A stretch of DNA of 64,000 nt, from positions 472,150-536,149 of the forward strand of contig CAJXKD010000002.1 of the NCBI GenBank assembly GCA_913055735.1, in the 5' to 3' direction. The number at the start of each line of letters is the position of its first letter. The first letter of the stretch is position 1. This document shows, in pieces, positions 7,722 to 58,777 of this stretch. The stretch is from an uncultured Rhodospirillales bacterium. Its GTDB lineage: Bacteria; Pseudomonadota; Alphaproteobacteria; Rhodospirillales; UBA2165. The position numbers and the translations under genes are program-made. The notes beneath the pieces were generated by a model, which did not search any database, was not told the DNA's origin, and saw only the letters and a program-made list of their open reading frames with translations.

Positions 7722-10700
7722 GTGTCTTTTCGGGGTCGGGCGACAGTATACGGGAAAGGGACCGCGGTGGAGCGGGGCGTCTTCAAATATATCCTGCGCT
7801 ATAGCAGGCCGCAGCAAATCTTGCTGCTGACCCTTTCGGTTCTCTCGTTCCCCGTTTATTACGCGTCTCTGCAGCTCCCCAAGATGATCGTCGATGACGG
7901 TATCGGTGCGGAAGATTTCCCCCGCACGTTCCTCGGCACCGAGTTCGAGCATATTCCTTTTTTGCTGTTTCTCTGCGGCATCTTTCTGGCGCTGGTCTTC
8001 TTCAACGGCGCGTTCAAATACGTCATCAACGTCTTTAAGGGATCGAGCGGCGAGCGCCTGTTGCGCCGTCTCAGATACCAACTTATCTCCCGCGTTCTTC
8101 GCTTCCCGCTGCCGCAGTTCCGGAAAGTGTCGCAAGGCGAATTGGTGTCCATGATCACTGCCGAAACGGAGCCGCTCGGCGGTTTCTTCGGCGAAGGCTT
8201 GGCGACGCCTGTTTATCAAGGCGGAATGTTAGTCACCCTGATGACATTCATGTTCGTGCAGGATTGGAAGCTGGGTCTTGCGGCGGTCGCCCTGTACCCG
8301 TTTCAGGCTTGGCTCATTCCCAAGTTGCAGCGTCAGGTAAATGCGCTCGGCAAGGAGCGGGTGCGAACCGTTCGGCAGTTGTCGGAACGGATTGGCGAGG
8401 CGGTGTCCGGCGCGAGCGAGATTCATGCGAATGATACCGCGCAGTACGAATTGGCCGACTTTTCGTCCCGGTTGGGGCGCATCTATGCCATTCGCTTCGA
8501 GATTTATCTCAAGAAGTTCTTCATCAAGTTCCTGAACAACTTTCTTGCCCAGCTGACACCGTTCTTTTTCTACTCCATTGGCGGCATCCTAGTCATCAAC
8601 GGGCAGATCACGATCGGGGCGCTGATCGCAATCCTTTCGGCTTACAAGGATGTCTTGGCGCCGTGGAAAATTCTGCTCAACTACTATCAGCAGAAAGAGG
8701 ACGCTCGGATCAAATACGAGCAGATCATTGAACGCTTCGAACCTACCGGTCTGCTCGATGAAAAGATGCAGGAGGAAGAGCCGGACGATCTGCCCCGCTT
8801 CGAAGGGCGGCTCGTCGCATCGAACGTCGGCTGGTCCGAGGACGATGGCTTGAAAGTTCTCGACGGGGCGTCGCTCGCCATTGATCTTCCCAAGCACGTC
8901 GCGTTGACCGGCCCGGCCGGCGGCGGGAAGGGGGAGTTCTCGCAACTCCTGGCGCGGCTTTTGGTGCCAAGCAGCGGCCGTATAACGATCGGCGACTCCA
9001 ACCTTATTGAGTTGCCGGAATCGGTAACGGGACGGCGCATCGCCTATGTCGGGCAAAGCCCGTATATGTTCAATGCATCGATCCGCGATAACCTTCTGTA
9101 CGGTCTAAAGCATCGGGTGTTGCAGGAACCCGAATACGACGCCGACGCCCGCAAGGAGCGCGAGAAGGAGATTCTCGAATCCCAAAGATCTGGCAATAGC
9201 GTCTACGATCCTTCAGCGATCTGGGTGGATGTCGGCTCCGCAGGGACTGAAGATGACGAAGCCTTGGCGCACCGGATAAACGAGGTGCTTCGAACGGTGG
9301 GGCTTCGCCGGGACGTCTATCAGATGGGATTGCGCCGGACCATAGACCCGGTGGAGCGGCGGGCCTTGGCCAAGCGGGTGCTTGAGGCGCGCGCCAAGCT
9401 GAGGGAGCGTTTGCTCGACCCTGAGCTCGCCCAATTCGTCGAGACTTTCGATCCGGAAAAATATAATAGCAACGCGTCGGTTGCCGAAAATATCCTGTTC
9501 GGCACGCCGGTCGGCGACCAATTGGCGATCGAGAAGCTCGGGGAAAACAGCTATATGCTGCGTGTTCTCGACGAGGTTGGTCTTGCCCAGGCGTTTCTGG
9601 AAAAGGGCTTGCGGCTCGCGGAGATCATGGTCGATCTGTTCCGCGGCCTGTCACCGGATCACGAGTTCTTCGAGCGGTTCAGCTTCATCAGCTCTGACGA
9701 TTTGCCGGACTTTCAAGCTATTGTACAGCGCGCGGCCCAAAGCGGGCTGGATAGTCTTCCCGAAGACGAGCGGGCGAGACTTCGGGCGTTGCCGTTCCTA
9801 CTGATCCCCGCCCGCCATCACCTGGACATTATCGACGAGCCTTTCCAGCGCCAGTTGTTGGATGCGCGCCGCGCCTTTCATGCCAGCCTCCCCAAGGAAT
9901 TGGCGTCGGCTGTCGAATTCTTCGATGTCGAGAAGTACAACTCCGCGAGTTCCATCCAGGACAATATTCTGTTCGGCAAGCTTGCCCGGGAACGGGCCGG
10001 AAGCGCCGAGAAAGTCGGCGTCTTGCTTGCGGAGGCCGTGGATGAAGTCGGACTTCGCCAGGACATCCTCGAGCTGGGTCTCGACGTCAATGTCGGCATC
10101 GGCGGCAGTCGCTTGTCGGCGCTTCAAAGGCAAAAACTGGCCATCGCCCGAGGCCTGATGAAATGTCCCGATATTTTCATCCTGAACGAAGCGTTGTCGG
10201 GACTCGATCCGGACAACCAATCGTTGTTGCTCGAGAGCGTGTTGCGTGAGCAAGAGGGTCGGTCGGTCGTTTATGTGAACGGACCAACGGCGTCGACGGA
10301 CCATTTCGATCAGGTCATTTCCATCGCCGGTGGGCGAGTGGTCGATCATGGTGTGGGCGCGGCGCCGCCGCTCGAGGAAGCGCCCGCGGTTCCCGCGGAA
10401 GAGGTCGCCGGCGGCGGTTTTGGAGGCGAAATCGATGTTCTGGCGTCGCTTCCCTTGTTTCGTGGCATCGACCGCTCGCGTCTCAAACTGCTGGCCTTCG
10501 CCAGCCAGCGCCACATTTATGACCCGGGTCAGTACGTTATCCGGCAGGGCGAGGTCGGGGAAAACGCCTATATCGTCATTGACGGTGAGGCCGAAATCCT
10601 GCTCGACACGGGAGATGAGTTGAAAAAACTCGCGACATTGAAGCGCAACGACTTGTTCGGCGAACTGGCGCTCCTTTGCGAGGCACCGCGGACCGCCTCG

Positions 10701-11387
10701 ATCGTCGCCTCGACGCCCCTGACGGTTATGAGCATTTCCAAGGACGTTTTCATCAAGCTGGTCGCCGAAGATGTCGAGATGTCGGCGCGGGTGACCCGGT
10801 CTATTGCTGATAGCTTGGTGCGCACGACCGAGGATTTGAGCGAGGCGGCCCGGGTTCACGATTCCACAACGGACCTGCCCGACGCGCGGCTGTTCAACGA
10901 CCGGCTCCGGTATGCGGTTGCGCGCGGACGGCGTTTCCAGGAGGCCGCCGCGATCATTACGTTCAATCTGGAGCGATTCTTCGATGCGGACAGCGGCTAT
11001 TCGGAGGCCGACCGCGATGCTTTGTTAAAAGTCATCGCCGTACGCATCCGCGATGCCATCCGCGAAACAGACATGGCGGCGCGCCTTGATGACCTCGAGT
11101 TCGGGGTTCTCTTAAGTCCGGTCGACGGCAGCCTTTCGCATCAGGATATGGCGCAGCGTATCGCCGACAGTCTGTCTGCGCCTATCGATTTGCCCGAACG
11201 GTCGGTCCGGTTGACTGAAGCATGCGCGTTCAAGTTCCTCCAACTCGACGGCCGGGACGCGGAGGATCAGTTGCGGTCTTGTCGCAAAGGCGAAGGAAAG
11301 GTCATTCAAGTTTCCGGACGGGGGCAGGCGCCGGAACCGCGGCCAAAGGGACAAAATGGTGCCGGTGCCGATCGCAGGTCCACTTAG
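7722..11387 (+). CDS. ABC exporter-type TMD + degenerate/expanded NBD + cNMP-binding domain + degenerate GGDEF domain (1221-aa fusion)
   Basis: Six-TM type I exporter region. NBD-like motifs GPAGGGKGE, LSALQRQ and IFILNEALSGLD. cNMP phosphate-binding cassette FGELALLCEAPRTASIVA. GGDEF-like region with RETD-MAARL-DDLEF. The exact start is uncertain. Confidence 0.8.
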   Translation: MSFRGRATVYGKGTAVERGVFKYILRYSRPQQILLLTLSVLSFPVYYASLQLPKMIVDDGIGAEDFPRTFLGTEFEHIPFLLFLCGIFLALVFFNGAFKYVINVFKGSSGERLLRRLRYQLISRVLRFPLPQFRKVSQGELVSMITAETEPLGGFFGEGLATPVYQGGMLVTLMTFMFVQDWKLGLAAVALYPFQAWLIPKLQRQVNALGKERVRTVRQLSERIGEAVSGASEIHANDTAQYELADFSSRLGRIYAIRFEIYLKKFFIKFLNNFLAQLTPFFFYSIGGILVINGQITIGALIAILSAYKDVLAPWKILLNYYQQKEDARIKYEQIIERFEPTGLLDEKMQEEEPDDLPRFEGRLVASNVGWSEDDGLKVLDGASLAIDLPKHVALTGPAGGGKGEFSQLLARLLVPSSGRITIGDSNLIELPESVTGRRIAYVGQSPYMFNASIRDNLLYGLKHRVLQEPEYDADARKEREKEILESQRSGNSVYDPSAIWVDVGSAGTEDDEALAHRINEVLRTVGLRRDVYQMGLRRTIDPVERRALAKRVLEARAKLRERLLDPELAQFVETFDPEKYNSNASVAENILFGTPVGDQLAIEKLGENSYMLRVLDEVGLAQAFLEKGLRLAEIMVDLFRGLSPDHEFFERFSFISSDDLPDFQAIVQRAAQSGLDSLPEDERARLRALPFLLIPARHHLDIIDEPFQRQLLDARRAFHASLPKELASAVEFFDVEKYNSASSIQDNILFGKLARERAGSAEKVGVLLAEAVDEVGLRQDILELGLDVNVGIGGSRLSALQRQKLAIARGLMKCPDIFILNEALSGLDPDNQSLLLESVLREQEGRSVVYVNGPTASTDHFDQVISIAGGRVVDHGVGAAPPLEEAPAVPAEEVAGGGFGGEIDVLASLPLFRGIDRSRLKLLAFASQRHIYDPGQYVIRQGEVGENAYIVIDGEAEILLDTGDELKKLATLKRNDLFGELALLCEAPRTASIVASTPLTVMSISKDVFIKLVAEDVEMSARVTRSIADSLVRTTEDLSEAARVHDSTTDLPDARLFNDRLRYAVARGRRFQEAAAIITFNLERFFDADSGYSEADRDALLKVIAVRIRDAIRETDMAARLDDLEFGVLLSPVDGSLSHQDMAQRIADSLSAPIDLPERSVRLTEACAFKFLQLDGRDAEDQLRSCRKGEGKVIQVSGRGQAPEPRPKGQNGAGADRRST

Positions 11388-34696: not shown

Positions 34697-35485
34697 TTAG
34701 GCTGGTGTCATAATGGTTTCAATGGGGCCTTCGGCGCGGCTGTGGATGAACTGATCGACGTAGGGATTGCCGGTTTCCTCCACCTCGTCGGCGGGTCCGG
34801 TCCAGATGATCTTACCGCCATGGAGCATGGCGATCCGGTCGGCGATCTTGCGCGCGCCGTCCATGTTGCTGGTGATGGACAGCACTGTGGCGCCCAGCCG
34901 ATGGACACCGTCGAGGATCAGTTCATTGATGATGTTGGTCATGATGGGGTCGAGCCCCGCCGTCGGTTCATCGAGGAAGATGATCTCCGGATCCCCGGCG
35001 ATGGCACGCGCGAATCCGACCCGTTTCTGCATGCCGCCGGAGAGATCGGCGGGCAGAAGATTCGCCACCTCCGCATCCATACCGACATCGGCCAACTTCT
35101 GAATGGCGACCTGTTTTGCGTCGCGGCGGGACATTGCCCCGTTCCGGCCCCGGTTCTGCATCAGCCGGAAGGCGACGTTTTCCCAAACCGTGAGGCTGTC
35201 AAACAACGCGGACTGCTGAAAAAGCATACCGGTACGGCGCAGGAGTTCTTCGCGGTCCGCCGGGGGAAGCCCCACTGTCTCCTGACCGTCGATCTTGATG
35301 CTGCCGGAATCCGGTGGGATGAGGCCGAGGATGCATTTGAACAAAAGCGTCTTGCCGCAGGCGGACGGGCCCACCAGCACGACCGATTCCCCGTTGGCAA
35401 CGTCGAGATCGACCCCGGTGAGCACATGCTCGTTCCCGAAGCTTTTGGTGACGCCCCTTAGACTGATCTTCGGTGTGCCGGTCAC
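34697..35485 (-). CDS. Orphan ABC ATP-binding protein (MlaF-like)
   Basis: GTG start. Walker A GPSACGKT, signature LSGGMQKR, Walker B IIFLDEPTAGLD. No cognate permease gene is adjacent. Confidence 0.85.
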   Translation of the reverse strand: MTGTPKISLRGVTKSFGNEHVLTGVDLDVANGESVVLVGPSACGKTLLFKCILGLIPPDSGSIKIDGQETVGLPPADREELLRRTGMLFQQSALFDSLTVWENVAFRLMQNRGRNGAMSRRDAKQVAIQKLADVGMDAEVANLLPADLSGGMQKRVGFARAIAGDPEIIFLDEPTAGLDPIMTNIINELILDGVHRLGATVLSITSNMDGARKIADRIAMLHGGKIIWTGPADEVEETGNPYVDQFIHSRAEGPIETIMTPA

Positions 35486-35814
35486 TGGCTATTTTCCAAC
35501 AAATAATCGACCGCGTGCTTGAAATCTTCGTCGGTATAGCCGCGCCGCCCGCGCCGCGCTGTCATGTGCTGCAGGCCGTTGAGAACCGAATCGTACAATG
35601 CCTCGCGACCCTTGGCGATACGCGGCGCCCAAGCCGTCTTGTCGCCGAATTTTGGCGCGCCGACGGTGCCTTCATCGTGGCAAAAAGAACAGGTTTTCTT
35701 ATAAACCGTACCACCGTTCCCGGGCAGGTCCTTGTCGAACGGCGTCTGGGCGTAAGCGGGGAAGGCCAGCAGCGACGCGCAAAAAAGACCGGCAACGAAC
35801 TTCGGTTTGATCAT
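35482..35814 (-). CDS. Class I c-type cytochrome (cytochrome c5-like), periplasmic
   Basis: Signal peptide and haem motif CSFCH. The stop overlaps the GTG of the ABC ATPase (GTGA). Confidence 0.85.
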   Translation of the reverse strand: MIKPKFVAGLFCASLLAFPAYAQTPFDKDLPGNGGTVYKKTCSFCHDEGTVGAPKFGDKTAWAPRIAKGREALYDSVLNGLQHMTARRGRRGYTDEDFKHAVDYLLENSQ

Positions 35815-35956
35815 GAAATGAGCCTAGCGGGCTTTTGCCTTTTCGTACAGAGGCCCGCCATAGGTACAAACCCGATAGTATGTTGGAATTCAATGGAAAC
35901 ATCGGTGCGGGCCGATATGATGGCGTCAACACGACGAAACCAATAAGGAGGAAGAT

Positions 35957-36604
35957 GTGAGCCTCGCAGAAAAACTTGCCGAAATCGCCGAAGCCGGCAA
36001 GCAGCGCATGCCCGAACAGGTACGCAATACGCTCGGCCAATTCGTACAGTCGCTACGTGATTCCGGCATCATGGAACGCGCCATCAAGGTGGGCGATCCA
36101 TTGCCGGCTTTTTCGTTGCCCAACGCCAACGGCGAGATGGTCAATTCCGCCGACCTTTTGGCCAAGGGACCGCTTGTTGTTACCGTCTTCCGCGGCCATT
36201 GGTGACCCTACTGTAATGCAGAGCTGTATGCTTTGCAGGACGCTGTCGGAGACCTGAACGACTTAGGGGCGACCCTGGTGGCGATCACGCCGCAACTTCC
36301 CGAAAAAAGCCGGGAACTGATCGAAAAGCACAATATTTCGTTCGAGATGCTGAGCGATAAGGGCAATGCCTATATCGAAGAGCTCGGGATCAAGTTCGAG
36401 TTGTCGCCCGAGGTCAAAAAAATCTATGCCGGTGGCGGTATCGATCTGCTGGCGACCAATGGTGACGACAGCTGGACCCTGCCAATGCCCGCGCGATTGG
36501 TGGTGGATACCAGCGGCATCGTCCGTGCCGCCGACATCGATCCCAACTACGGCCAACGGCCGGAACCGGAAAAGACCATCGCCGACGTCAAAGCTCTCGG
36601 CTGA
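35957..36604 (+). CDS. Peroxiredoxin-like (AhpC/TSA, thioredoxin-fold) protein with in-frame UGA at 36203-36205, predicted selenocysteine (W-U-P-Y-C)
   Basis: The ORFs 35957-36205 and 36233-36604 share one frame, and the 27 nt between them are open. The UGA sits where family members have the first Cys of WCPYC. RBS aaggagg precedes the GTG at 35957. Confidence 0.7.
36217..36237 (+). promoter_or_regulatory. Candidate bacterial SECIS hairpin
   Basis: 8-bp stem tgcagagc/gctttgca (one G-U), 5-nt loop ugUau containing GU. Starts 11 nt after the UGA codon. Confidence 0.5.
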
Positions 36605-36639
36605 CGTTTCGAGCGATATCCTGAAATTGGCGGTTCACC

Positions 36640-36659
36640 GGCGGGTGGGCCGCCTTTTT
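36640..36659 (+). terminator. Possible weak intrinsic terminator
   Basis: GC-only 5-bp stem ggcgg/ccgcc with a 5-nt loop, followed by T5, 36 nt after the stop. Confidence 0.4.
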
Positions 36660-36768: not shown

Positions 36769-37056
36769 ATGGCGAACGAAGGCTACCACGAACCCCTCGA
36801 AGAACTGTCGGACGAAACCCGGGACATGCACCGGGCGATCGTTTCTTTGATGGAGGAACTGGAAGCGGTCGACTGGTATAACCAGCGCGTCGACGCGTGC
36901 AAGGACGAGGAATTGAAGGCCATCCTCGCGCACAACCGCGATGAGGAAAAAGAGCACGCCGCCATGGTTCTCGAATGGATCCGCCGCCAGGATCCGACCT
37001 TCGACAAGGAGCTGAAGGACTACCTGTTCACGACGAAATCCCTAAAGCACGACTAA
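36769..37056 (+). CDS. Encapsulated-ferritin-like (EncFtn family) protein lacking an obvious C-terminal targeting extension
   Basis: HEPLEELS...MEELEAVDWYNQRVDA...ILAHNRDEEKEHAAMVLEWIRR closely resembles my recollection of Rhodospirillum rubrum EncFtn. Only 95 aa. RBS aggagaagg. Confidence 0.8.
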   Translation: MANEGYHEPLEELSDETRDMHRAIVSLMEELEAVDWYNQRVDACKDEELKAILAHNRDEEKEHAAMVLEWIRRQDPTFDKELKDYLFTTKSLKHD

Positions 37057-46741: not shown

Positions 46742-47719
46742 TTACCCGGCCAATTGCGCGGTGAGCCTGCGAGCAAGGGCGCCGACCACCCGGCGGCGGT
46801 ACCAGGGTGCGACCGTGGTCGTCCGCATGGGCTTGGCCTGCTTACGCACGTTCTCGCGCAGGGCATCGAGGGCATCCTCGTCGAGGGGCTTGCCGATAGC
46901 GGTATCGGCGCCCTTGACCACCTGCGGGTAGGGGTTCACGCCGGTGAGCGCGATCTTGATGTTGGCGACCTTACCGCCGTCCATCACCAGGCGCACGGCG
47001 GCCCCCGCCAGCGGGAAATCGATGGAGCCCCGGATGCGGGCCTTCTCATAGGCCGACGGTTGCTCCGCGAGGGACTTCGGTAGATGTACCGCCGTCACCA
47101 GATCGCCCGGCTCGAGGGTCAGATGGTTGAGGCCGTCATTGCGGTAAAGCTCGGTCAGCGGCTGGCGGCGCAACTCTCCGTTTGCGCCCAGGATGTCGAT
47201 CTCCGCATCGTAGACCAGCATGGCCGGCGCGACGTCGCCCGAAAAGGCGGCGAAGCAGCGCTTGCCTCCCGGCGCCACGTGGCAAATCTCGCCGCGCTCC
47301 TTGAGGCAATAGTCGTTCGATTGCCGCCACCATTCGCTTTGGTTGTAGAACAGGCAGCGCGTATCGAGGCAAAGATTGCCGCCGACGGTGCCGTAGTCCT
47401 GGTGGGTGGGGCCGGCAACGGCGCGCGCGGCCTGGGCGACCGCCGGATAATCCCGTTGCACCAGCTCGTTCGTGGCGAGATCGCGGAGCGTCACGCCCGC
47501 GCCGATATGCAGGCCGTCCTCGTCCTCAGCGATCGATTTGATATCGTCGATAGCGGTGACGTCGATCAGTGCCTTGGGCTGTTCGATACCGCGCCGAACG
47601 TTGACCAGCATGTCGGTGCCGCCGGCCACGAACAGGGCATCCTCGGTGTCGGCACGCAACTTGGCCGCCTCGGCGGCGGTGGCCGGGCGATGGAGTTTGA
47701 AATCGGGCATGAACTCCAT
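46742..47719 (-). CDS. hcrB: Xanthine-dehydrogenase-family FAD-binding subunit with Cys-rich insertion (4-hydroxybenzoyl-CoA reductase beta-type)
   Basis: FAD_binding_5 motif (FVAGGTDMLV). Insertion CLDTRCLFYNQSEWWRQSNDYCLKERGEICHVAPGGKRCFAAFSGD carries four spaced Cys residues. Confidence 0.7.
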   Translation of the reverse strand: MEFMPDFKLHRPATAAEAAKLRADTEDALFVAGGTDMLVNVRRGIEQPKALIDVTAIDDIKSIAEDEDGLHIGAGVTLRDLATNELVQRDYPAVAQAARAVAGPTHQDYGTVGGNLCLDTRCLFYNQSEWWRQSNDYCLKERGEICHVAPGGKRCFAAFSGDVAPAMLVYDAEIDILGANGELRRQPLTELYRNDGLNHLTLEPGDLVTAVHLPKSLAEQPSAYEKARIRGSIDFPLAGAAVRLVMDGGKVANIKIALTGVNPYPQVVKGADTAIGKPLDEDALDALRENVRKQAKPMRTTTVAPWYRRRVVGALARRLTAQLAG

Positions 47720-50103
47720 CAGGCCATTTCCTCTTCTTCTTGGGCGGCGGCAACCCGTGCATCTGTTTCCTGTTTCTCGATCAACTCCATCAAGCGATCG
47801 GGCGTCACCGGCAGATCGATGGGCCGGACGCCGAGCGCGTTGGCGATGGCGTTGACATAGGCCGGGATGAACGCGGCGAGGGAGGTTTCTCCAGCCTCCT
47901 TGGCACCGAATGGCCCGTGCGGATCGACGCTTTCGACGATGTGCGTTTCGATGGGTGGGGATTCGACGATGGACGGCACCCGGTAGTCGAGCATGTTGCC
48001 GGTGATCGGCAGGCCGTTGTGGAAGCGCGTGCCTTCGCAGAAGGCCTGCCCCATGCCCATCCAGACGGAGCCCTGGATCTGCCCTTCAACCGACAGGGGA
48101 TTCAGCGCCCGGCCGACGTCCTGTGCGGCCCAGACACGCTCCACCGTCACTTCGGCGGTGTCGGGATCGATGCACACCTCCACCACCTCGGCGGCATAGG
48201 CATAGGCCATGGAGCCGCCGACGGCGCCGCCGCGGTACTTCTTGGTGCCGTGCGATTCGGGCAGGGTATCGAAATTGCCTTTCACGGTGATGGTACCGGT
48301 GCCCTCGAGAGCGGCCATCACCACTTCCTGGAAGCTAAGGCCTTTGTCCTGGCTGGCGGCACGATAGACCTCGCCCAGGCATTCGATGTCCTCGGGTTTG
48401 GCGTCTAGCTTGCGCGCCGCCGCTTCGATGAGCACGTTCTTCAAATTTTCGGCGGCCTGAATGGCGGCATTGCCGACCATGTAGGTGATCCGCGATGAAT
48501 AGGCGCCGTTGTCTTTGGGGACCAGCTTGCTGTCGCCGGTGTGGACGCGGAAACGCGACATATCGAGGCCGAGGGTTTCGGCAGCACATTGGGTAATGAC
48601 AGTCGACGAACCTTGGCCGATTTCGGGCGCCCCGGTGAGGAGCGTGATATTGCCGTCCCAGTCGAGCTTGAGGTTCACGGTGGCGTGGGGCTCGCCCGTC
48701 CAGTTCACCGGCTTCGAGGCGCCGCACGGATAGTGCGCGCAGCCGAGGCCCAGGCCACGCAGCTTGCCGTCCTTATCCCGGTTCTTGGGGCCCATCTTGG
48801 CAAGGCGCTTCTTCCAGCCGCTTTCCTTCTCGATCCAATCGAGGCATTCGCCGAGGCCGTAGCTGTTGATCAGCAGGTCATTGATGGTGGTTGTCGGCGC
48901 CTTCAACAGGTTCTTGCGGCGCACCTCGAAGGGATCGAGGCCCAATTCACCGGCCATCTCGTCCAGTAAGGATTCGAAGCCGTAGCGCACGTCGACCGTG
49001 CCGTGGCCGCGCATGGCGCCGGGCGGCGGCGTGTTGGTCAGAACACGCAGACCTTTGTAGCGGGCATGATCAAACTTGTAGATGCCATTGATCAGCGAGC
49101 CGGCATAGAGAATGGTGACGATGCCGTAGCCGCCATAGGCGCCGCCGCGCTGCGTCGCGGTGCAATCGACGGCGAGGATGGTGCCGTCCTTCTTCATGCC
49201 GATCTTCACCCGCACGTCGGTTTCGGGCCGGCCGCGATGGGTGATGAAGGTTTCCTCGCGGCTGACCACTAAACGCACCGTGCCTTCGGCCTTGCGGGCG
49301 AGGAGGGCAGCAATGAGTTCTACGTTCAAGCACTCGGTACGGCAGCCGAAGCCGCCGCCGATGTAGGGTTTGATTACCCGGATGCGTGACTGGTCCATCT
49401 TCAGGGTCTTGGCCAGCATGAGATGGACGTAGAACGGCACCTGGGTGGAGGCGCGCACTGTCATTTCGCCGCGTTCGGCATCGTATTCGGCGACGGCGGC
49501 GTGGGGCTCGGTCTGAACCTGGCAAATTTCGGCGCAGTTGTAGGTGCGCTCCATCACCAGATCGGCAGCCACCATGTTTTCATCGACCTCGCCGAGGTCG
49601 TAATCCACTTCGCGTTCCAGGTTGCCGGGACGGTCCTCGTGGATCAGCGCCGCGCCGGGCTCCATTGCCTCGGCGGCGGTGAAATAGGCAGGCAGTTCGT
49701 TGTAGTGGAAATCAATGAGATCGAGTGCCTTCTGCGCGGTCTCCACATCACGGGCGGCAACGGCGGCGACCGGTTCACCGCGATAGCGGACTTTGCCGCG
49801 GGCGAGGGGATACTCGTACCTGGCGATGGGTAGGACGCCGAAGCCTTCGTCACAGTCGTCGCCGGTAACGACGGAATAGACGCCGTCGAGAGCGAGCGCC
49901 TTCGACACGTCAACTTTGACGATCTCGGCATGGGCGACGGGACTGCGGAAGATGCGCCCGACATAATGGTCGTGCGGGATGTAGTCGGCGGTGTAGTCGG
50001 CCTTGCCCGAGACCTTCTCCGGGCCGTCGACCAACGGCATCGGAACGCCGATCATTTTTACTGGTTTATCAATGGGTTGCGGCGATTTCTTCATCTCGTT
50101 CAT
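47719..50103 (-). CDS. hcrA: Xanthine-dehydrogenase-family molybdopterin-binding large subunit (HcrA-type)
   Basis: 794 aa with aldehyde oxidase/XDH a/b-hammerhead and MoCo domains (GGGFG, GEPH..., FGAKEAGE). Confidence 0.75.
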
Positions 50104-50606
50104 GCCGCAGCTCCCGTCTTTTCATTCTTGAGTTCGGCAGCGGCGAATTGAACGGCTTCGATAATTTTGACATAGCCGGTGCAGCGGCAAATGTTGGCTG
50201 CCAGCCCTTGCCGGATATCGTCCTCGGTGGGATCGGGATTGTCGCGCAACAGGCCTTCGGCGGCCATGATCATGCCCGGCGTGCAGAAGCCGCATTGGGC
50301 GCCGAGCTTTTCGTTGAAACCCCGCTGCAGTGCGTTCAGACGGCCACTGCGATCCAGGGCTTCGATGGTTTCGATGTCGGTGCCGTTACACACGGCAGCG
50401 AGGGTGAGGCAGGCATGACGCGGACGCCCATCGACCAACACAGTGCAACAGCCACATTCGCCGCCGTCACAGCCGATCTTAGTACCGGTCAGTCCGATGT
50501 GCTCACGCAGATAGTCGACGAGCAACATGTTGTCCGGAACCACATCATCACGGCGTCGGCCGTTGACGGAGCAACTCACGATGGTGCGGTGGTCGGTGTC
50601 GGTCAT
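50100..50606 (-). CDS. hcrC: (2Fe-2S)-binding small subunit (HcrC/CoxS-type)
   Basis: Plant-type C-x4-C-x2-C (CDGGECGCC) and a second cluster motif (CGFCTPG...CRCTGY). Confidence 0.8.
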
Positions 50607-51904: not shown

Positions 51905-52077
51905 GCGTGCGCGTGGCCGTGGCGGCCGCAGCCTCCTCGAACAACCTGAACGAAAACATCGGTTAACGTTTCAGCGGTAAATTTACAAGCCGTCGTCGGC
52001 GGCTGTCACGGGCGGCGTCTCGAGATTTGGCCGTTGGCCCGGAATCGTAGCCGCATGGTATTTGCAGGTTGTTCCGA

Positions 52078-52632
52078 ATGCCGCATTTCGAGCCTCAGGG
52101 GAGGGAGTATCCGACGGGCGTGTTGTACTGGCTTACCGGGCTTGCCGGTGCCGGGAAAACCACCCTGGGACACCTTCTTTTCGAGGAAATCCGTACCCGC
52201 AGGCCGCAGTCAGTGTTTCTGGACGGCGACGTGCTGCGCAAAGTGTTCGATATCGAAGGGGGCACAAAGCCGGCCGAACGGCTGCAGCTTGCGATGCGCT
52301 ACGCGCGGCTTTGCCGTGATTTGACGGCGCAGGACATCGATGTCGTCTGCTGCACGATTTCTCTTTTTCCAGAAGTGTGGAACTGGAACCGGGAAAATAT
52401 CCCCAGCTATCGGGAAATCTACGTCCGTGTTCCGATGGACGTGCTGAAGCAGCGTGACAAGAAAGGCCTCTATTCGTCAGCCGAATCGGGGGAGGTCCAA
52501 AATGTCGTCGGTGTGGATCTGCCTTTTAACGAACCAGTCAATCCCGATCTAATCGTCGACAACGACGGAACCTCCGATCCGGCAACGGTCGTATCGGGGA
52601 TCGTCTCGGCTTTAGGAGCCTGTCGGCCATGA
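52078..52632 (+). CDS. APS-kinase-family P-loop kinase; predicted cytidine diphosphoramidate 3'-kinase (Cj1415-like)
   Basis: GLAGAGKTTLG P-loop and LDGD motif, ~185 aa. Translationally coupled to the three partner enzymes. Confidence 0.7.
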   Translation: MPHFEPQGREYPTGVLYWLTGLAGAGKTTLGHLLFEEIRTRRPQSVFLDGDVLRKVFDIEGGTKPAERLQLAMRYARLCRDLTAQDIDVVCCTISLFPEVWNWNRENIPSYREIYVRVPMDVLKQRDKKGLYSSAESGEVQNVVGVDLPFNEPVNPDLIVDNDGTSDPATVVSGIVSALGACRP

Positions 52633-55019
52633 ATTTCTTCCCGCCGGTATTCGGAACCAAGGCCGAAACCCTTGCCGCATTGGGGCGCCATACGCATGAC
52701 TTCCGGGTTCCGGACACGTATTTCTTTACGGTCTCGGATTGGACACGGGATTCCGCTGACATCATACGAACAATCGGCACGCGATTTGCCGACCGCGTCG
52801 CCGTGAGAAGCAGCGCGGTGTCGGAGGATGGCAATACCGCCTCGCTGGCGGGTAAATACGTCAGCCGTTTAAATATCAACGCGCAATGCCCGGATGACTG
52901 TACCGACGCCATCGAGTGTGTCATCGCGTCCTATGACGGAAACGCCAGCGATCAAATTTTGATCCAGGAAATGGTCGGAGACGTAGAGGTTGCCGGTGTC
53001 ATCATGTCCCACAATTTGGATGACGGCGCTCCGTACTACGTGTTCGGTTACGATGATGAGTCTGGGCGGACCGATGCTGTCACCGGCGGGTTCGGCGTGC
53101 ATAAAACTGTACTCGTTCATCATGAGGCTGATGAGCGCCATATACGGTCGGTTCGAATCCAAAAGATGCATGCGCTGATACGTAATCTGGAGACCGTCTT
53201 CGGCCGGCGCCCCATGGACGTGGAGTTTGCGATAGACCGGTCGGGCGTTGCCCATGTCTTTCAGGTCCGGCCGATAACCACGTCGGAGAAGTGGTCGGCG
53301 GCGACCACTCGTTGCGTCAACCGAGAGCTTCCTCGTATGGAAAGTATTCTCAAACGTTACGCGGCACGCCGGCCGGGTCTTGCCGGGAGAACAAACATCC
53401 TTGGCAATATGCCCGACTGGAATCCGGCGGAAATCATCGGCTCCTCACCGAGACCATTGGCAACATCGCTATATCGGCATCTTGTCACCAAGGATGTCTG
53501 GCACATAGCACGTGCCGCGATGGGGTACCGGAAGCTGCCGGGTGTAGAACTGCTGGTGGAGATGGCCGGCCGGCCCTTCATCGATGTCCGCGCCAGCTTT
53601 AACTCGTTCTTGCCGAACGCGACGGATGCGGGCACGGCGGAAAAGTTGGTGGACAGCTGGTTGTCGCGGCTCGACCGGCATCCGGAATTTCACGATAAGA
53701 TTGAGTTCGAAATTGCCAGCACGGCGTACGACTTTCTTTTCGAACAAAACCAATCTGAACGCTATCCCGGCGTTCTCTCCACGGAGGCGTTGGCGGCCTA
53801 TAGAAACGACCTAAAGGCCCTAACCGCACGCAACCTTGCCTTAGATCGCAAAAGTTTTCTCGGAACTGCCGAGCGTCAGCTGGAGACGTTGCGATCACGG
53901 CGAACGATTTACGAGAAAGAGAACAAAGCCGATCCTGTGAACCTCCTCGGTCAGGTGGTGCTGCTGTTGAACGATTGCCGCCGCCTCGGCACTCAACCTT
54001 TTGCCGTTATTGCGCGCCAGGCGTTTATTGCAGAGGCGCTATTGCGGTCCGCCGTGGCCCGTGGCGCCATTTGCGATAACCGGGTTCTGGAGCTCAAAAG
54101 ATCTATAAACACGGTTTCGCGTGATATCTCACGCGATCTGAATTCAGTGTGCAAAGGCGCGTTGGATAAGTCCGTGTTTTGGCTCAACTATGGCCATCTC
54201 CGACCGGGATCTTACGACATTACCTCGCCCCGATATTCGGATCGGAAGAATCTGTTTGAGAATGGCGTTACCGCCGCCGATGCGCCGGAGACGGGGCCGT
54301 TTGTTTTGAACCCAGCAGAGGCGAGGGGCCTCGATGGGCTGTTGAAAGAGTCAGGATTGGACCACCTCACCGCGGCACAGCTTATCGAGTATGCCGGACG
54401 GGCGATACGGGGGCGAGAATACGGTAAGCTGATCTTTACCTGGAATTTGTCCGCTGCATTGGAAAACATTGCCGAATGGGGGAAGCTTCTCGGTCTCAGC
54501 CGAGACGACGTCTCGTTTCTCCCGGTTGACGAAATTCTTTCAATGGGGCGTCCGAGTTCCCTCGAAGATCGGGCCAGAGCTTTTGTGGATCAGATAGCGG
54601 CGGCCCGTGAGGACTTTGCTGATTCTCATGCGGTGAAACTGGGATATTTGATCCGGGACGTACACGATCTTTATGTCCTGCCTGTCCACCGAAGTGCGCC
54701 GAATTTTGTTACCAGCAAGCGAACAGAGGGCCGCGTGGCTCATTTAGAAAACAGAACCTCGGCGGCGGCCGATTTACGCGGTGCAATTGCATGCATCGAA
54801 AATGCGGATCCAGGATTCGACTGGATTTTTGCAAAGGGTATTTCCGGCTTGATTACCAAATTCGGTGGAATGAATTCACACATGGCTGTTCGTTGCGCGG
54901 AATTTGGGTTGCCCGCCGCGATCGGGTGCGGTGAAGATTTGTTCGACCGGATCGTCGGCGGCCCGTCAGCCGTGCTGGATTGCGCAAATAAAACGCTCGT
55001 TTCGGCAGATGAATACTGA
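52629..55019 (+). CDS. PPDK/PEP-synthase-like ATP-grasp plus swivelling phosphohistidine-domain enzyme; predicted L-glutamine kinase (Cj1418-like)
   Basis: N-terminal PPDK_N-like region (VRSSAVSEDGNTASLAGKY) and C-terminal PEP-utilizer motif GGMNSHMAVRCAEFGLPA, 796 aa. Confidence 0.7.
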   Translation: MNFFPPVFGTKAETLAALGRHTHDFRVPDTYFFTVSDWTRDSADIIRTIGTRFADRVAVRSSAVSEDGNTASLAGKYVSRLNINAQCPDDCTDAIECVIASYDGNASDQILIQEMVGDVEVAGVIMSHNLDDGAPYYVFGYDDESGRTDAVTGGFGVHKTVLVHHEADERHIRSVRIQKMHALIRNLETVFGRRPMDVEFAIDRSGVAHVFQVRPITTSEKWSAATTRCVNRELPRMESILKRYAARRPGLAGRTNILGNMPDWNPAEIIGSSPRPLATSLYRHLVTKDVWHIARAAMGYRKLPGVELLVEMAGRPFIDVRASFNSFLPNATDAGTAEKLVDSWLSRLDRHPEFHDKIEFEIASTAYDFLFEQNQSERYPGVLSTEALAAYRNDLKALTARNLALDRKSFLGTAERQLETLRSRRTIYEKENKADPVNLLGQVVLLLNDCRRLGTQPFAVIARQAFIAEALLRSAVARGAICDNRVLELKRSINTVSRDISRDLNSVCKGALDKSVFWLNYGHLRPGSYDITSPRYSDRKNLFENGVTAADAPETGPFVLNPAEARGLDGLLKESGLDHLTAAQLIEYAGRAIRGREYGKLIFTWNLSAALENIAEWGKLLGLSRDDVSFLPVDEILSMGRPSSLEDRARAFVDQIAAAREDFADSHAVKLGYLIRDVHDLYVLPVHRSAPNFVTSKRTEGRVAHLENRTSAAADLRGAIACIENADPGFDWIFAKGISGLITKFGGMNSHMAVRCAEFGLPAAIGCGEDLFDRIVGGPSAVLDCANKTLVSADEY

Positions 55020-55671
55020 AGAAAACGGCCTTCGTATCGGCGTAACCATGCGTGTAGCTGAGGCCTCGTCCTATCGCGAGACGCGGGATCTCTTGGCGCG
55101 GGATTGGGGAAAGTTTCTCGCGGCCGCTCTGCCGTCAGTGCCGTGGATGCCGATTCCCAATCGGGAAAACGACGTTCATACCATCGTTCGCGATTGGGGC
55201 TTGAACGGCTTTATCCTTACAGGTGGCGATGACTGGGGAACAACACCGGTACGTGATCGGACGGAAGAGACAATTCTGCAGATTGCCGAAGAGAATTCGT
55301 TTCCCTTGCTGGGCGTTTGCCGTGGCCTGCAAGCGATGCAAATTCGTTCGGGTGGCCGACTTGCCGCATGTCCCTGCGACGCCCATGTCGCGACCCAACA
55401 CACCGTCAGATTTGTTCGCCCGGTGGGCGGCTCCCGTTTCGGCGATGGTGAAATGACCGTCAACTCGTTCCATGCCAATGGCATTCTGGAAGGGGAATTG
55501 GCCGACGACCTTGAAGCCATTGCAATAAGTGCAGACGGATTTATCGAGGCTGCCTCCCACGGGAGATATCCCCAGCTGGGCGTCATGTGGCACCCGGAAC
55601 GAGCGCGAGCCTTTCACCCAACAGACGTCGGGCTGTTGCGCTCCTTGTTCGGTTTTAAAGAAACGCCATGA
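55009..55671 (+). CDS. Class I glutamine-amidotransferase-like hydrolase; predicted gamma-glutamyl-CDP-amidate hydrolase (Cj1417-like)
   Basis: Nucleophile elbow GVCRGLQ and a later MWHPE (His-Glu of the triad). Overlaps both neighbours. Confidence 0.7.
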   Translation: MNTEENGLRIGVTMRVAEASSYRETRDLLARDWGKFLAAALPSVPWMPIPNRENDVHTIVRDWGLNGFILTGGDDWGTTPVRDRTEETILQIAEENSFPLLGVCRGLQAMQIRSGGRLAACPCDAHVATQHTVRFVRPVGGSRFGDGEMTVNSFHANGILEGELADDLEAIAISADGFIEAASHGRYPQLGVMWHPERARAFHPTDVGLLRSLFGFKETP

Positions 55672-56423
55672 AGGGGATAATTCTTGCCGCGGGGCGAGGC
55701 AGCCGCATGGGGAGCGCGACCGATGACAGGCCCAAATGCTTTGCCAAGATAGACGGCCGCCGGCTCATCGACTGGCAAATTGCTGCACTTCGTGACGCGG
55801 CGCTCGACGACATCACAATCGTTGGCGGGTATCGACGGGAAATGCTTGCGCCATACGCGGATCAAGTTCTTGCGAACTGCCATTGGGCGGAGACCAACAT
55901 GGTCACCAGTTTGGTGTGTGCCGCCGACATTCTGCGAAGTCACGATTGCATCGTTTCGTATTCCGATATCCTTTACCACCCGGATATCGTACGCGCTCTC
56001 TCGGCGTCGAATGCGGATATCGCGATATCTTTCGATGAAGACTGGAGGTCGCTCTGGTCGGACCGTTTCACCGATCCGCGGAATGACGCCGAGGGTTTCG
56101 AGGCCAAAGACGGTTATCTCGTTTCAATCGGCGATCGGCCAGAAGACCTCGATGACGTTCGGGGGCAATATATGGGGCTTTTGAGAATTTCGCCGCGCGG
56201 TTGGCAAGAGATCGAGGGCTATTTGTCGACGCTCGACGGCGCGAGACGTGATTGTCTCGATATGACGGGGCTGCTCGCGGCCTTGTTGGATAAGGGCGTC
56301 GGAATTGAAACCATTGCCATTACGGGTAAATGGTGTGAAGTGGACAGCGCAGACGATTTGACCCTTTATCGCCATAGAATTTCGGAAGCGGCGGCGTGGT
56401 CCCATGATTGGCGGTGGAAGTAG
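55668..56423 (+). CDS. Nucleotidyltransferase (LicC-like); predicted CTP:phosphoglutamine cytidylyltransferase (Cj1416-like)
   Basis: GIILAAGRGSRMG...PKCF signature of sugar/small-molecule NTP transferases, 251 aa. Confidence 0.7.
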   Translation: MKGIILAAGRGSRMGSATDDRPKCFAKIDGRRLIDWQIAALRDAALDDITIVGGYRREMLAPYADQVLANCHWAETNMVTSLVCAADILRSHDCIVSYSDILYHPDIVRALSASNADIAISFDEDWRSLWSDRFTDPRNDAEGFEAKDGYLVSIGDRPEDLDDVRGQYMGLLRISPRGWQEIEGYLSTLDGARRDCLDMTGLLAALLDKGVGIETIAITGKWCEVDSADDLTLYRHRISEAAAWSHDWRWK

Positions 56424-56485
56424 GACGAGACGCGTGGCGGCTCATTCTCATGACAACTTAGATGAGTGAACCGCTCAGAGGCCGC

Positions 56486-57733
56486 TTAACGTTTCCAGCC
56501 GCAATCTTCAAGTATCCGGTCCGGCGTTAAATCCTGAATTTTCTTCTGTTGTGACGGCGTTAGACCGGTGCGCCAGGCATCGAGGCTGCCCTTCAACACT
56601 TCGTTGCTATGATGCTCATATTGGAGCTGCCGATCGTTTTTTAGCAGTTTCTCGTCAAAGCCGAAAAAATCTGCGATTTCCGCGAAATATCCTTCTGGAT
56701 CGGTCTTGAACTTTTCGAAGGTTACCAGCTTAACCTCCATACCGGAGGCGGGTGATCGTGCGAATTCATTCCAACCTGCTACCCAATCAGCCCATAAAGG
56801 TTCGTAGGCGTTGTCTATGTTCCAATCGATTTTCTTTTCGATGGGAAGGTCCTCATATCCGCGCGGCAGATGTTCGTAATACATGTGGCGGAGCTGCCAT
56901 GTCTGGTGCTCCAAATGATAAAAGAATGAAAAGAATGCTTGCCGAGGGTCGCGGAGATGGACCAGCATTTTCGACAGGTGAGACCGCGATAGGGTGTTCA
57001 GGTTGGCGTCGCTGGGCAGCGGGTGGCTCGTGCTCACCGCGGCGCCGCGCTGAAAATCGTCAAGTAGAACCGGAGCAAAAATGGACCGCGGAAAATTGTT
57101 CAACGTGGTCGGAAATATGCAGACGTCCAAACCGCATGCCATATAGTAAAGGATGTATTGTGAGGCCGCGCTCGGCATGGAGACCATAAGTATGGGCGGA
57201 ATACCGGCAGTGATCGCCGCCTCGCGCTTTTCTATTTGTTCGGGTAGGTTCTGGTAATTCAGACTAAGGAAGTCTTTGGGGCTGTAACTTCGTGCACCGT
57301 TCGCCGGACTCGATTTCGCCGATGACGAAAGGCCGTTACATTGGTCAACGAGGTGGTTTCGCAGTTTCTCATAAAGTTGCGCGTTGCTCTCGCCCCTAAG
57401 AAGCCTATCAAGGGTAAGTGCCTGATTGATACAATTGACGCTCAAATCCGGGCGGTCTGCTTTTAGTAGGCACAACGACTGCAAGAAAAATAGATAGTCG
57501 TTTGACTGATGTGTTTGCAGGAGCTTTTCCAGGATCCCGCTAAGGCTTCCGAAATTTCGGCTCGTAATCAGGTGGCGCAGGATCTCAGAGATATTTTCCG
57601 GAATATCTTCCAGGGGATTACCTGCTTCGAGAATGTCATGCGCCATTTCTTCAAAGGCTGATATCTCAAAATCGGGCATCATTGGCACAGAACTTTCGGA
57701 AGCCGGCAACCGAGAACAGGGGAATCGGGACAA
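56486..57733 (-). CDS. Sulfotransferase-fold protein with helical N-terminal domain; candidate phosphoramidate transferase
   Basis: ILMVSMPSAASQYIL (5'-PSB-like loop lacking Lys), MLVHLRDPRQAFFSFFYH (3'-PB motif), VTFEKFKTDPEGYFAEIADFFGF, KGSLDAWRTGLT. About 50% GC. Confidence 0.65.
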   Translation of the reverse strand: MSRFPCSRLPASESSVPMMPDFEISAFEEMAHDILEAGNPLEDIPENISEILRHLITSRNFGSLSGILEKLLQTHQSNDYLFFLQSLCLLKADRPDLSVNCINQALTLDRLLRGESNAQLYEKLRNHLVDQCNGLSSSAKSSPANGARSYSPKDFLSLNYQNLPEQIEKREAAITAGIPPILMVSMPSAASQYILYYMACGLDVCIFPTTLNNFPRSIFAPVLLDDFQRGAAVSTSHPLPSDANLNTLSRSHLSKMLVHLRDPRQAFFSFFYHLEHQTWQLRHMYYEHLPRGYEDLPIEKKIDWNIDNAYEPLWADWVAGWNEFARSPASGMEVKLVTFEKFKTDPEGYFAEIADFFGFDEKLLKNDRQLQYEHHSNEVLKGSLDAWRTGLTPSQQKKIQDLTPDRILEDCGWKR

Positions 57734-57792
57734 ACGGACTTATGATCAAACGCGGCCAGAAATAGGCTAGAAAGCGATTGTAAATATTATGT

Positions 57793-58566
57793 TTATTGCT
57801 TTCTCGCGCTCCAAGCACGGGTGAGGTAGCTGCAGGAAATGGTGCCCGATTTGGCTGTTTTCTCCTCAACGAAGCTCAGGAATTTCTTGAATTCCGACTC
57901 GCCGAGTTGTGCACGCACGTCATTAACGGATTTCCACACCCCGACGTAGCGTTCGGGGGACATTTCGATGGTGTGAGGCCCCTCCAAGAAAACGACGTCG
58001 TCAAAAAATCCGCATGATTGGAGACGCTCACTCAAACCTTCGGTGATCCCGCCTTTCCCTGAAGACTTCCGTTGAAGCCCGGGCTTCAAACTGTAAAGAA
58101 ATGCTTCGATCTCCTCCAACATGGGGTTGTCTTGGATGTGTCTCGGATTCCAGAGGCACACAAATCGCCCGCCCGGCTTTAAAATTCTATTGAATTCATT
58201 TACTGCCGCATCGAAATCCGCCCAGTGAAATGAGGAAGCCATGCTGACCCAATCGTACGTAGCGTCGGGCAGGCCCGTCTCCTCCGCGCGTCCAGTCAGC
58301 CATGTCACGGGAGTTGAAATGGACTGGGCTTTTCCGACCCGGCGCATGTCATCGTTTGGTTCAATGGCCGTAATCCGGCGAACGCCGAAATCGGCAAGCA
58401 TCGCGGTGAATATTCCGGTGCCGGCGCCGACATCGACCGCTTGGACTTCCTCTATTGGCCGATCAAGGAGTGCCAGTGTCGCTAAGACAACCGAGTGCGA
58501 ATAATCCGGCCTAAAACGCGCGTATGCATCGGCAAGCCCAGAAAAATCACCCAGGGGTAAGCTCAT
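57793..58566 (-). CDS. Class I SAM-dependent methyltransferase (Methyltransf_11-like)
   Basis: ATG at 58566 after gggaga. Motif I VDVGAGTGIF, then LKPGGRFV. Confidence 0.8.
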   Translation of the reverse strand: MSLPLGDFSGLADAYARFRPDYSHSVVLATLALLDRPIEEVQAVDVGAGTGIFTAMLADFGVRRITAIEPNDDMRRVGKAQSISTPVTWLTGRAEETGLPDATYDWVSMASSFHWADFDAAVNEFNRILKPGGRFVCLWNPRHIQDNPMLEEIEAFLYSLKPGLQRKSSGKGGITEGLSERLQSCGFFDDVVFLEGPHTIEMSPERYVGVWKSVNDVRAQLGESEFKKFLSFVEEKTAKSGTISCSYLTRAWSARKQ

Positions 58567-58777
58567 TTTTCTCCCACGCATCGACAGCCAAGACAACCGG
58601 GTATCCGCTAACAAATAGGGTGCTGTAGTTGAAAATTCGTAACTATTCGCCAGTGGATGAAAATTGCGGTGAGGCTGAGGATTTTTCCCACTGCGCGTTC
58701 GCTACGAGGCTGAATCCCCATACCTTCATGCGCGATTCCGGTATCTGTAGTGGACTCGTCCCGGACGGGACCACAAT

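Follow-up and report, generated by a model that had tools for sequence, protein, structure and literature searches.

Does the TGA at positions 36203 to 36205, lying between two short open reading frames (ORFs) in one frame, end a gene, or is it read as selenocysteine (Sec)? The locus lies in a 64,000-nt stretch of a contig from an uncultured Rhodospirillales bacterium, referred to here as the window, with positions counted from its first letter. An earlier reading of the letters had joined ORFs 35957-36205 and 36233-36604 into one selenoprotein; the original prediction was followed up here by homology searches, RNA folding, covariation analysis and structure prediction. The region 35957-36604 is very probably a single 215-codon selenoprotein gene of peroxiredoxin (Prx) fold, with Sec in its active site specified by the UGA and a conserved hairpin similar to a selenocysteine insertion sequence (SECIS). 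The features on which this reading rests are as follows.

35945-35951, plus strand: Shine-Dalgarno sequence AAGGAGG, read from the sequence, 5 nt 5' of the GTG start codon
35957-36604, plus strand: complete coding sequence of the probable selenoprotein, 215 codons and a stop, with GTG start, Sec as codon 83 and TGA stop at 36602-36604
36203-36205, plus strand: in-frame UGA, read as Sec (U83) from homolog alignment and TGA conservation, opening the U-P-Y-C redox motif
36212-36214, plus strand: TGT codon for Cys86, partner of Sec83, invariant in alignments and lying over the peroxidatic Cys of BCP/PrxQ (PDB 2cx3)
36217-36237, plus strand: SECIS-type hairpin supported by RNAfold and covariation, with an 8-bp stem (36217-36224/36230-36237) and loop UGUAU (36225-36229)
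36629-36659, plus strand: intrinsic-terminator-like hairpin from a terminator scan, lying 25 nt past the stop codon; its stem has 11 pairs, eight being G-C, and a TTTTT run comes after it

A single reading frame

From sequence and translation, one plus-strand frame opens with the GTG at 35957 and closes with the TGA at 36602-36604, and its sole internal stop is the TGA at 36203-36205. The ORF listing gives 35957-36205 (82 aa) and 36233-36604 (123 aa, TTG start) in this shared frame, so the earlier claim of a single interruption agrees with the translation. The 27 nt separating the two ORFs are codons for the conserved PYCNAELYA, and the joined product reads ...VVTVFRGHW-U-PYCNAELYALQD..., with W-U-P-Y-C as residues 82-86. 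Homolog N-termini of the form M-S/T-L (MSL...) coincide with the GTG start, and the strong ribosome-binding site named in the original prediction is the AAGGAGG listed above. Public gene calls (JGI, Logan) at the identical locus show the same split into 82 and 123 aa. A Pfam profile search of the 215-residue product, with Cys put at the TGA position, matched AhpC-TSA (pfam00578) across the TGA, with profile positions 1-123 of 124 over residues 45-191 (E 1.8e-25, 89.7 bits vs a cut-off of 26); Pfam Redoxin was also matched by the joined product. The terminator-like hairpin and its T-run follow the stop codon, and the gene therefore looks monocistronic.

Homologs and conservation of the TGA

Among 5.8 billion proteins searched, 1,853 were homologous at E <= 1e-10; the top ones are 214-224 aa long and have 100% query coverage. 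In the 117 listed motif-bearing homologs the position of the TGA is occupied by Cys (WCPYC) in 107, by an apparent Trp ('W') in 6 and by Ser in 4, and the UGA thus takes the place of the first WCPYC Cys, as had been proposed. Residue C86 is invariant in the homolog alignments. The suggested alignment with Cys- and Sec-containing homologs gives Cys homologs that are single proteins of 214-224 aa, and it also gives TGA orthologs in quantity. The latter were sought with the pattern GGNNNNTGGTGACCNTWYTGYAA, which places no constraint past codon +4, over one genome per GTDB species, and at least 120 matches were obtained. Among the matches listed, essentially all are AhpC/TSA homologs once read through the TGA, and at least 70 distinct full-length orthologs carry TGA at the same codon (36-63% identity, E down to 1e-104). 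These TGA orthologs, again among the matches listed, come from Acidobacteriota, Desulfobacterota, Alphaproteobacteria/Rhodospirillales, Chloroflexota, Planctomycetota and others, the closest being L027 from Alphaproteobacteria/Rhodospirillales at 63%. Sec orthologs with intact hairpins are found in several Alphaproteobacteria/Rhodospirillales metagenome-assembled genomes (MAGs; L027, L041, L050, L087 and L021). The TGA at 36203-36205 itself is identical in independent assemblies from JGI and Logan (L002-L005 and L257), which excludes sequencing error.

The apparent Trp residues have an origin of their own. For P0001 and P0012 (loci L006, L008 and L009), whose active-site sequence is given as HW-W-PYC, the codon behind the middle 'W' is TGA. 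The genes fail to give the database proteins under genetic code 11, and the gene callers must therefore have used code 4. The Trp entries P0017, P0021, P0025 and P0026 probably reflect the same code-4 mistranslation. Such calls occurred on short contigs and left selenoprotein orthologs stored with the wrong catalytic residue. A further TGA ortholog (L061, 56% identity), on a contig labelled as a Klebsiella pneumoniae MAG (CAMATU010000054.1), has an alphaproteobacterial-type hairpin with a UGUAU loop; this contig is probably mis-binned.

A hairpin specific to the Sec forms

The original prediction placed an 8-bp hairpin with GU in its loop 11 nt after the UGA; it was found as described at 36217-36237, and RNAfold and the constraints on bacterial SECIS elements (bSECIS) agree with it. 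The element comprises tgcagagc (36217-36224), tgtat (36225-36229) and gctttgca (36230-36237), with 11 nt from the A of the TGA to the first stem base and 19 nt from the UGA to the loop. Folding of 36203-36262 with RNAfold gives exactly this hairpin, with a minimum free energy (MFE) of -17.6 kcal/mol against a shuffle mean of -11.5 (z = -2.46); 4 of 200 shuffles fold as well. The model for bacterial elements calls for a loop of 3-9 nt, a stem of 4-16 bp, a UGA-loop distance of 16-37 nt, an MFE <= -7.5 kcal/mol and a G at loop position 1 or 2, with G or U usually next (PMC13188914). The window element has a loop of 5 nt, a stem of 8 bp, a spacing of 19 nt and G then U at loop positions 2-3, and its -17.6 kcal/mol, a figure for the 60-nt stretch and not for the hairpin alone, lies within the energy limit.

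Pairing in the Sec orthologs was compared with that in a Cys control of 32 orthologs, collected with the same pattern but with TGY at the site and under the same BLAST criteria. In the window's register, 81.6% of cells are paired in the at least 70 Sec orthologs (inner six pairs 81-99%) vs 39.5% in the Cys orthologs, or a mean of 6.5 of the 8 pairs in Sec forms and 3.1-3.3 in Cys forms. Six of the eight pairs have changed on both sides in Sec forms, compensatory substitutions among them, e.g. GC in 31 and CG in 9 at one pair and CG in 26, UG in 18 and UA in 13 at another, vs two of eight in Cys forms. None of 500 shuffles reaches the pairing observed in Sec forms; 313 of 500 do so for Cys forms. 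Registers slid by 1-3 columns give 30-51% pairing in Sec forms, and Cys forms are no different from their own slid registers.

Codon choice within the hairpin follows the same division. The Glu codon is GAG in 65 of 65 Sec forms (GAA in 10 and GAG in 5 Cys forms), the Leu codon CTG in 66 of 69 (12 of 28 Cys forms) and the Ala codon GCT in 61 of 68 (2 of 23 Cys forms), while elsewhere in the Sec genes GAG, CTG and GCT make up 51%, 36% and 12%, respectively. Synonymous sites are expected to be saturated at 36-63% protein identity. The loop has the form UG[G/U]NN in 63 of the 70 Sec orthologs listed, and the family SECIS consensus can be written GAGCUG-[G/U]NN-GCUC, 11-14 nt after the UGA. The hairpin is an RNA element under selection and is specific to the Sec forms.

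Selection on the frame and the genetic code

Two metagenome contigs (L003 and L004) represent a strain 98.7% identical to the window over 12.9 kb. Within the gene they differ from the window at 17 sites, 16 of them third-position synonymous changes and one an Ala-to-Thr replacement. The TGA divides them into eight synonymous changes plus the replacement on its upstream side and eight synonymous changes alone on its downstream side, and codons 66-119, which hold the TGA and the hairpin, show no differences. The ratio of 16 synonymous changes to one non-synonymous, spread over both halves, indicates that the whole frame is translated; judged from these substitutions, a dead downstream half could not give such a pattern.

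A reassigned code, in which TGA would stand for Trp or Gly, was considered and rejected, since TGA terminates 14 of the 51 predicted window genes, including this one. In the same 51 genes, a small sample, TAA is used 21 times and TAG 16 times. TGA is the rarest stop in the window despite a G+C content of 59%, at which it is usually the commonest. Nineteen other TGA-joined ORF pairs in the window were examined as candidates and set aside; all have surroundings that look non-coding and none has a Cys-type redox motif, judged by sequence context only.

A Ser-bearing sister clade

The nearest non-Sec relatives (P0002, P0003, P0005 and P0006; 57-58% identical) have Ser at the Sec position. Three of them, P0002, P0003 and P0006, are encoded at L007:79-726, L252:102-770 and L253:812-1465 and use the Ser codons TCG, TCA and TCA, respectively. 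A SECIS-type hairpin is kept in L007 (GCAGAGC-TGATC-GCTCTGC) and L253 and has decayed in L252. A downstream neighbour, Zn_peptidase_2, is common to all three loci and is followed by Peripla_BP_6 in L007 and L252. A single step separates the codons TCA and TCG from TGA, but not from TGC or TGT, and this, together with the hairpin retained in two of three loci, suggests a direct replacement of Sec by Ser. It is possible, and is put forward tentatively, that this clade made a direct Sec-to-Ser switch in place of the usual Sec-to-Cys one, with the thioredoxin-like UxxC becoming the canonical Prx SxxC and the SECIS element decaying, in which case the window gene would be the surviving Sec state in a clade whose catalytic strategy is changing.

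Sec decoding in the host and alternative explanations

The formate-tetrahydrofolate ligase (FTHFS) of the window is, in a homology search, only 62-64% identical to those of Stappia, Rhodobacterales and Methylobacterium, and from such sequence comparison the host is a deep-branching alphaproteobacterium that appears to have no close named relatives. Its competence for Sec is assumed, on the ground that a SECIS-type element is intact and under selection in its genome.

Several observations weigh against a selenoprotein. ARAGORN found no tRNA gene of any kind in the 64-kb window, hence no tRNA-Sec, and no SelA, SelB or SelD domain was detected in about 55 window genes (Pfam on 36 predicted genes and a Pfam table for the central 20 kb). 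In Alphaproteobacteria selC is reported to lie within selB in some cases (Mukai 2021, cited in PMC13188914). With tblastn against the window and the other loci analysed, E. coli SelA and SelD gave no match, and SelB gave only weak GTPase similarity at two unrelated loci. No Rfam family reached the gathering threshold anywhere in the 64 kb and none matched at E <= 10 over 36100-36400, although this result is uninformative; of the proposed SECIS check, the bSECIS constraints and the covariation confined to TGA orthologs support the element. The Cys control was drawn from a different collection (metagenomes) and is more distant from the window protein. The nominal binomial p-values for the codon fixation, 1e-19 to 1e-48, ignore shared ancestry and are overstated. 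The loop of the window element is UGUAU, whereas most orthologs have UGGNN. Lastly, any redox mechanism for the subfamily has to be read from fold and motif. The residual doubt about the selenoprotein gene is that Sec machinery was unseen in the window.

One alternative explanation is that the gene is a former selenoprotein in a host that no longer decodes Sec. Either a near-cognate tRNA (Trp or Cys) would then read the UGA with low efficiency, or the gene would be a relic heading for replacement as in the Ser-bearing clade. The missing machinery in the 64 kb would fit, and so would the TCA and TCG codons of the closest non-Sec relatives, given that loss of Sec happens in the clade. FdhA was also the only selenoprotein found in Alphaproteobacteria by a 2006 survey of sequenced genomes (PMC1794560). 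Against it, the hairpin has a perfect 8-bp stem, codons 66-119 show no substitutions between strains, both halves are under purifying selection, and the Alphaproteobacteria/Rhodospirillales MAGs named above hold Sec orthologs with their hairpins intact. Loss of Sec decoding is accordingly improbable.

Still less probable is that the TGA is a true stop, whether between two genes or between a truncated 82-residue product and a separately initiated one of 123 residues. The JGI and Logan callers do give these two ORFs and a TTG start is available at 36233, but no Shine-Dalgarno sequence precedes that TTG, a single Pfam domain runs across the TGA, and neither half would make up a complete thioredoxin fold, the U/CxxC motif being cut between them. 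All Cys homologs, moreover, are undivided, and the nucleotides between the ORFs encode conserved residues. That the TGA arose by nonsense mutation, leaving a recent pseudogene, or that it reflects faulty assembly or sequencing of an ordinary Cys-type gene, is scarcely credible: TGA is one base from TGC or TGT, but five independent assemblies agree on it, a 2.6%-diverged strain among them, at least 70 diverged orthologs share it, eight synonymous and zero non-synonymous changes follow it, and the hairpin-specific codon fixation would be left unexplained. A selenoprotein gene remains the preferred reading.

Fold and proposed mechanism

The best PDB sequence match of the selenoprotein is 2cx3, a BCP peroxiredoxin (E 2.6e-9), with S-P-V-C over U-P-Y-C. 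The alignment puts Cys86 at the position of the peroxidatic Cys and Sec83 at that of the Prx Thr/Ser. The next match, 3hdc, is a thioredoxin-family protein with WCPYC. An AlphaFold model of P0007, a Cys homolog 54% identical to the window protein, has a mean predicted local distance difference test score (pLDDT) of 95.6 and a predicted TM-score (pTM) of 0.91, and shows a Prx/BCP-like core with an N-terminal helical extension, the Sec-equivalent residue lying just ahead of helix 83-94. In a Foldseek comparison of this model the top matches are BCP/PrxQ/AhpE proteins, with target TM-scores of 0.85-0.89, and ResA comes after them. Since Arg79 takes the place of the Prx Pro and NCBIfam Prx models score far below their cut-offs, the preferred reading is of a U-x-x-C site like that of thioredoxin, carried on a Prx scaffold.

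By analogy with the standard bacterial Sec pathway (PMC13188914), the UGA at 36203-36205 would be decoded as Sec when the hairpin at 36217-36237 offers its G-containing apical loop and recruits SelB-GTP-Sec-tRNA(Sec) as the ribosome arrives at the UGA. The terminal UGA at 36602, which has no hairpin, would lead to termination by RF2. Dependence on SelB and incorporation of selenium in this organism are likewise presumed. In the predicted protein, Sec83 would immediately precede the active-site helix at its N-terminal end, and Cys86 would lie in the first turn of that helix; this is the CxxC geometry of thioredoxins, and for this reason Sec83 is taken as the nucleophile. Sec83 may then attack a disulfide or peroxide, Cys86 may resolve the intermediate as a selenenylsulfide, and a cellular reductant would recycle the enzyme.

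Neighbourhood and other features of the window

The gene is flanked by a cytochrome c gene (35482-35814, minus strand) and an EncFtn-like gene (36769-37056, plus strand). These redox-themed neighbours are present as originally noted, but their synteny with orthologs is absent outside this species; the neighbourhood adds little and, the neighbours not being conserved beside orthologs, was dropped as evidence. The EncFtn-like gene encodes 95 residues and has no encapsulin shell gene adjoining it; the next gene, on the other strand, is NTP_transf_9/DUF427.

Elsewhere in the window, 7722-11387 (plus strand) is a 1,221-residue ORF with ABC_membrane, partial ABC_tran, cyclic-nucleotide-binding and GGDEF domains, an unusual transporter-signalling fusion. 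A three-gene molybdopterin hydroxylase cluster of the CoxSLM/xanthine dehydrogenase type occupies 46742-50606 (minus strand), with 2Fe-2S, molybdenum cofactor (MoCo)-binding large and FAD subunits; some molybdopterin hydroxylases use a labile selenium cofactor. The region 52069-58614 encodes APS kinase, PPDK_N/PEP-utilizer, a MobA-like nucleotidyltransferase, a sulfotransferase and a methyltransferase. Its third-position G+C is 0.58-0.67 vs 0.70-0.84 for the rest of the window, and it may be an acquired sulfation island.

Significance

The practical value of the analysis is a correction of annotation. With the locus called as two ORFs in every public gene call and orthologs mistranslated with Trp, the catalytic residue is wrongly given in protein databases. 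The family SECIS consensus, which is well supported, could guide re-annotation of the many orthologs known from Acidobacteriota, Desulfobacterota, Alphaproteobacteria and further phyla. The gene also indicates, without proof, Sec decoding by an uncultured deep-branching alphaproteobacterium. What is mildly new is the sister clade with Ser.

Relation to known systems

The original prediction had assigned the protein to a known Prx-like bacterial selenoprotein family with Sec at this Cys, and the assignment is borne out. A Prx-like UxxC selenoprotein family was catalogued in the Sargasso Sea study (PMC1088965); the Global Ocean Sampling (GOS) study counted 225 selenoproteins and 2,740 Cys homologs under 'Prx-like 1' (pfam00578, UxxC; PMC2398784); and reviews give 'Prx-like thiol:disulfide oxidoreductase, PF00578, UxxC/UxxU' as a high-confidence prediction (PMC9312934, PMC13188914). 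Two sequences under '#Prx-like 1' in GOS Dataset S1, JCVI_READ_1565530 and JCVI_READ_1091141146517, carry ...VFRGHWUPYCNAELYALQ... and ...SWTLP... and are 48% (E 3e-67) and 47% (E 2e-71) identical to the window protein over nearly its full length; as orthologs they establish that the family was already known. The original description of the Prx-like family, reference 12 of the reviews, is said to be that of Kryukov and Gladyshev in 2004. The Pfam domain, the UxxC motif with Sec first and the SECIS element directly after the UGA are alike in 'Prx-like 1' and the window gene, and nothing essential differs; the window copy comes from an uncultured deep-branching alphaproteobacterium, is unannotated and is split in two ORFs. 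The published 'Prx-like 1' is a broad bin that includes shorter and more distant subfamilies, such as one with ...FYRGHWUPYCRRQL... that is 33% identical over 58 aligned residues. Selenoproteome papers have described this family, together with its UxxC motif and SECIS element, since 2005-2008, and the window gene is an unreported, mis-annotated member and not a new kind.

BCP/PrxQ proteins (PDB 2cx3, 3drn and 5epf; PxxxT/SxxC) have the same fold as the window family, and their peroxidatic Cys lies under Cys86. They differ in that the Pro at -7 is Arg79 and the Thr/Ser at -3 is Sec83 in the window protein, which thus lacks the PxxxT/SxxC signature, and in that the window family adds an N-terminal extension of about 40 residues with predicted helices 3-14, 19-34 and 37-40. 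The NCBIfam BCP/PrxQ equivalogs score 47.6 bits vs a cut-off of 140 (NF006960) and 27.7 vs 260 (NF053650). R180, nearly invariant ahead of the LVVD strand in the alignments, may correspond to the conserved active-site Arg of Prx. True peroxiredoxins with Sec (TxxU; PMC1088965, PMC2398784) share the AhpC/TSA domain and a Sec in the active-site helix region; in these, Sec is the peroxidatic residue at the last position, whereas in the window protein Sec stands three residues earlier and the Cys at the peroxidatic position is kept. The 'Peroxiredoxin-like family protein (cd02970), UxxS' (PMC13188914) shares its NCBI name with the Cys homologs and has Sec in the first position; it is UxxS and the window protein UxxC, and membership of cd02970 is suggested by homolog names only.

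The RNA element can be compared in the same way. The minimal fdhF element of E. coli reportedly has an 11-nt spacer, as attributed to Liu et al. in 1998, the same distance as in the window. Like the fdhF SECIS and the bacterial SECIS model, the window element is a hairpin inside the coding sequence directly after the UGA, with a small apical loop bearing G and then G or U. It has no sequence similarity to fdhF, and its family core, GAGCUG-G/U-NN-GCUC, is partly dictated by the A/L-E-L-x-A-L codons.

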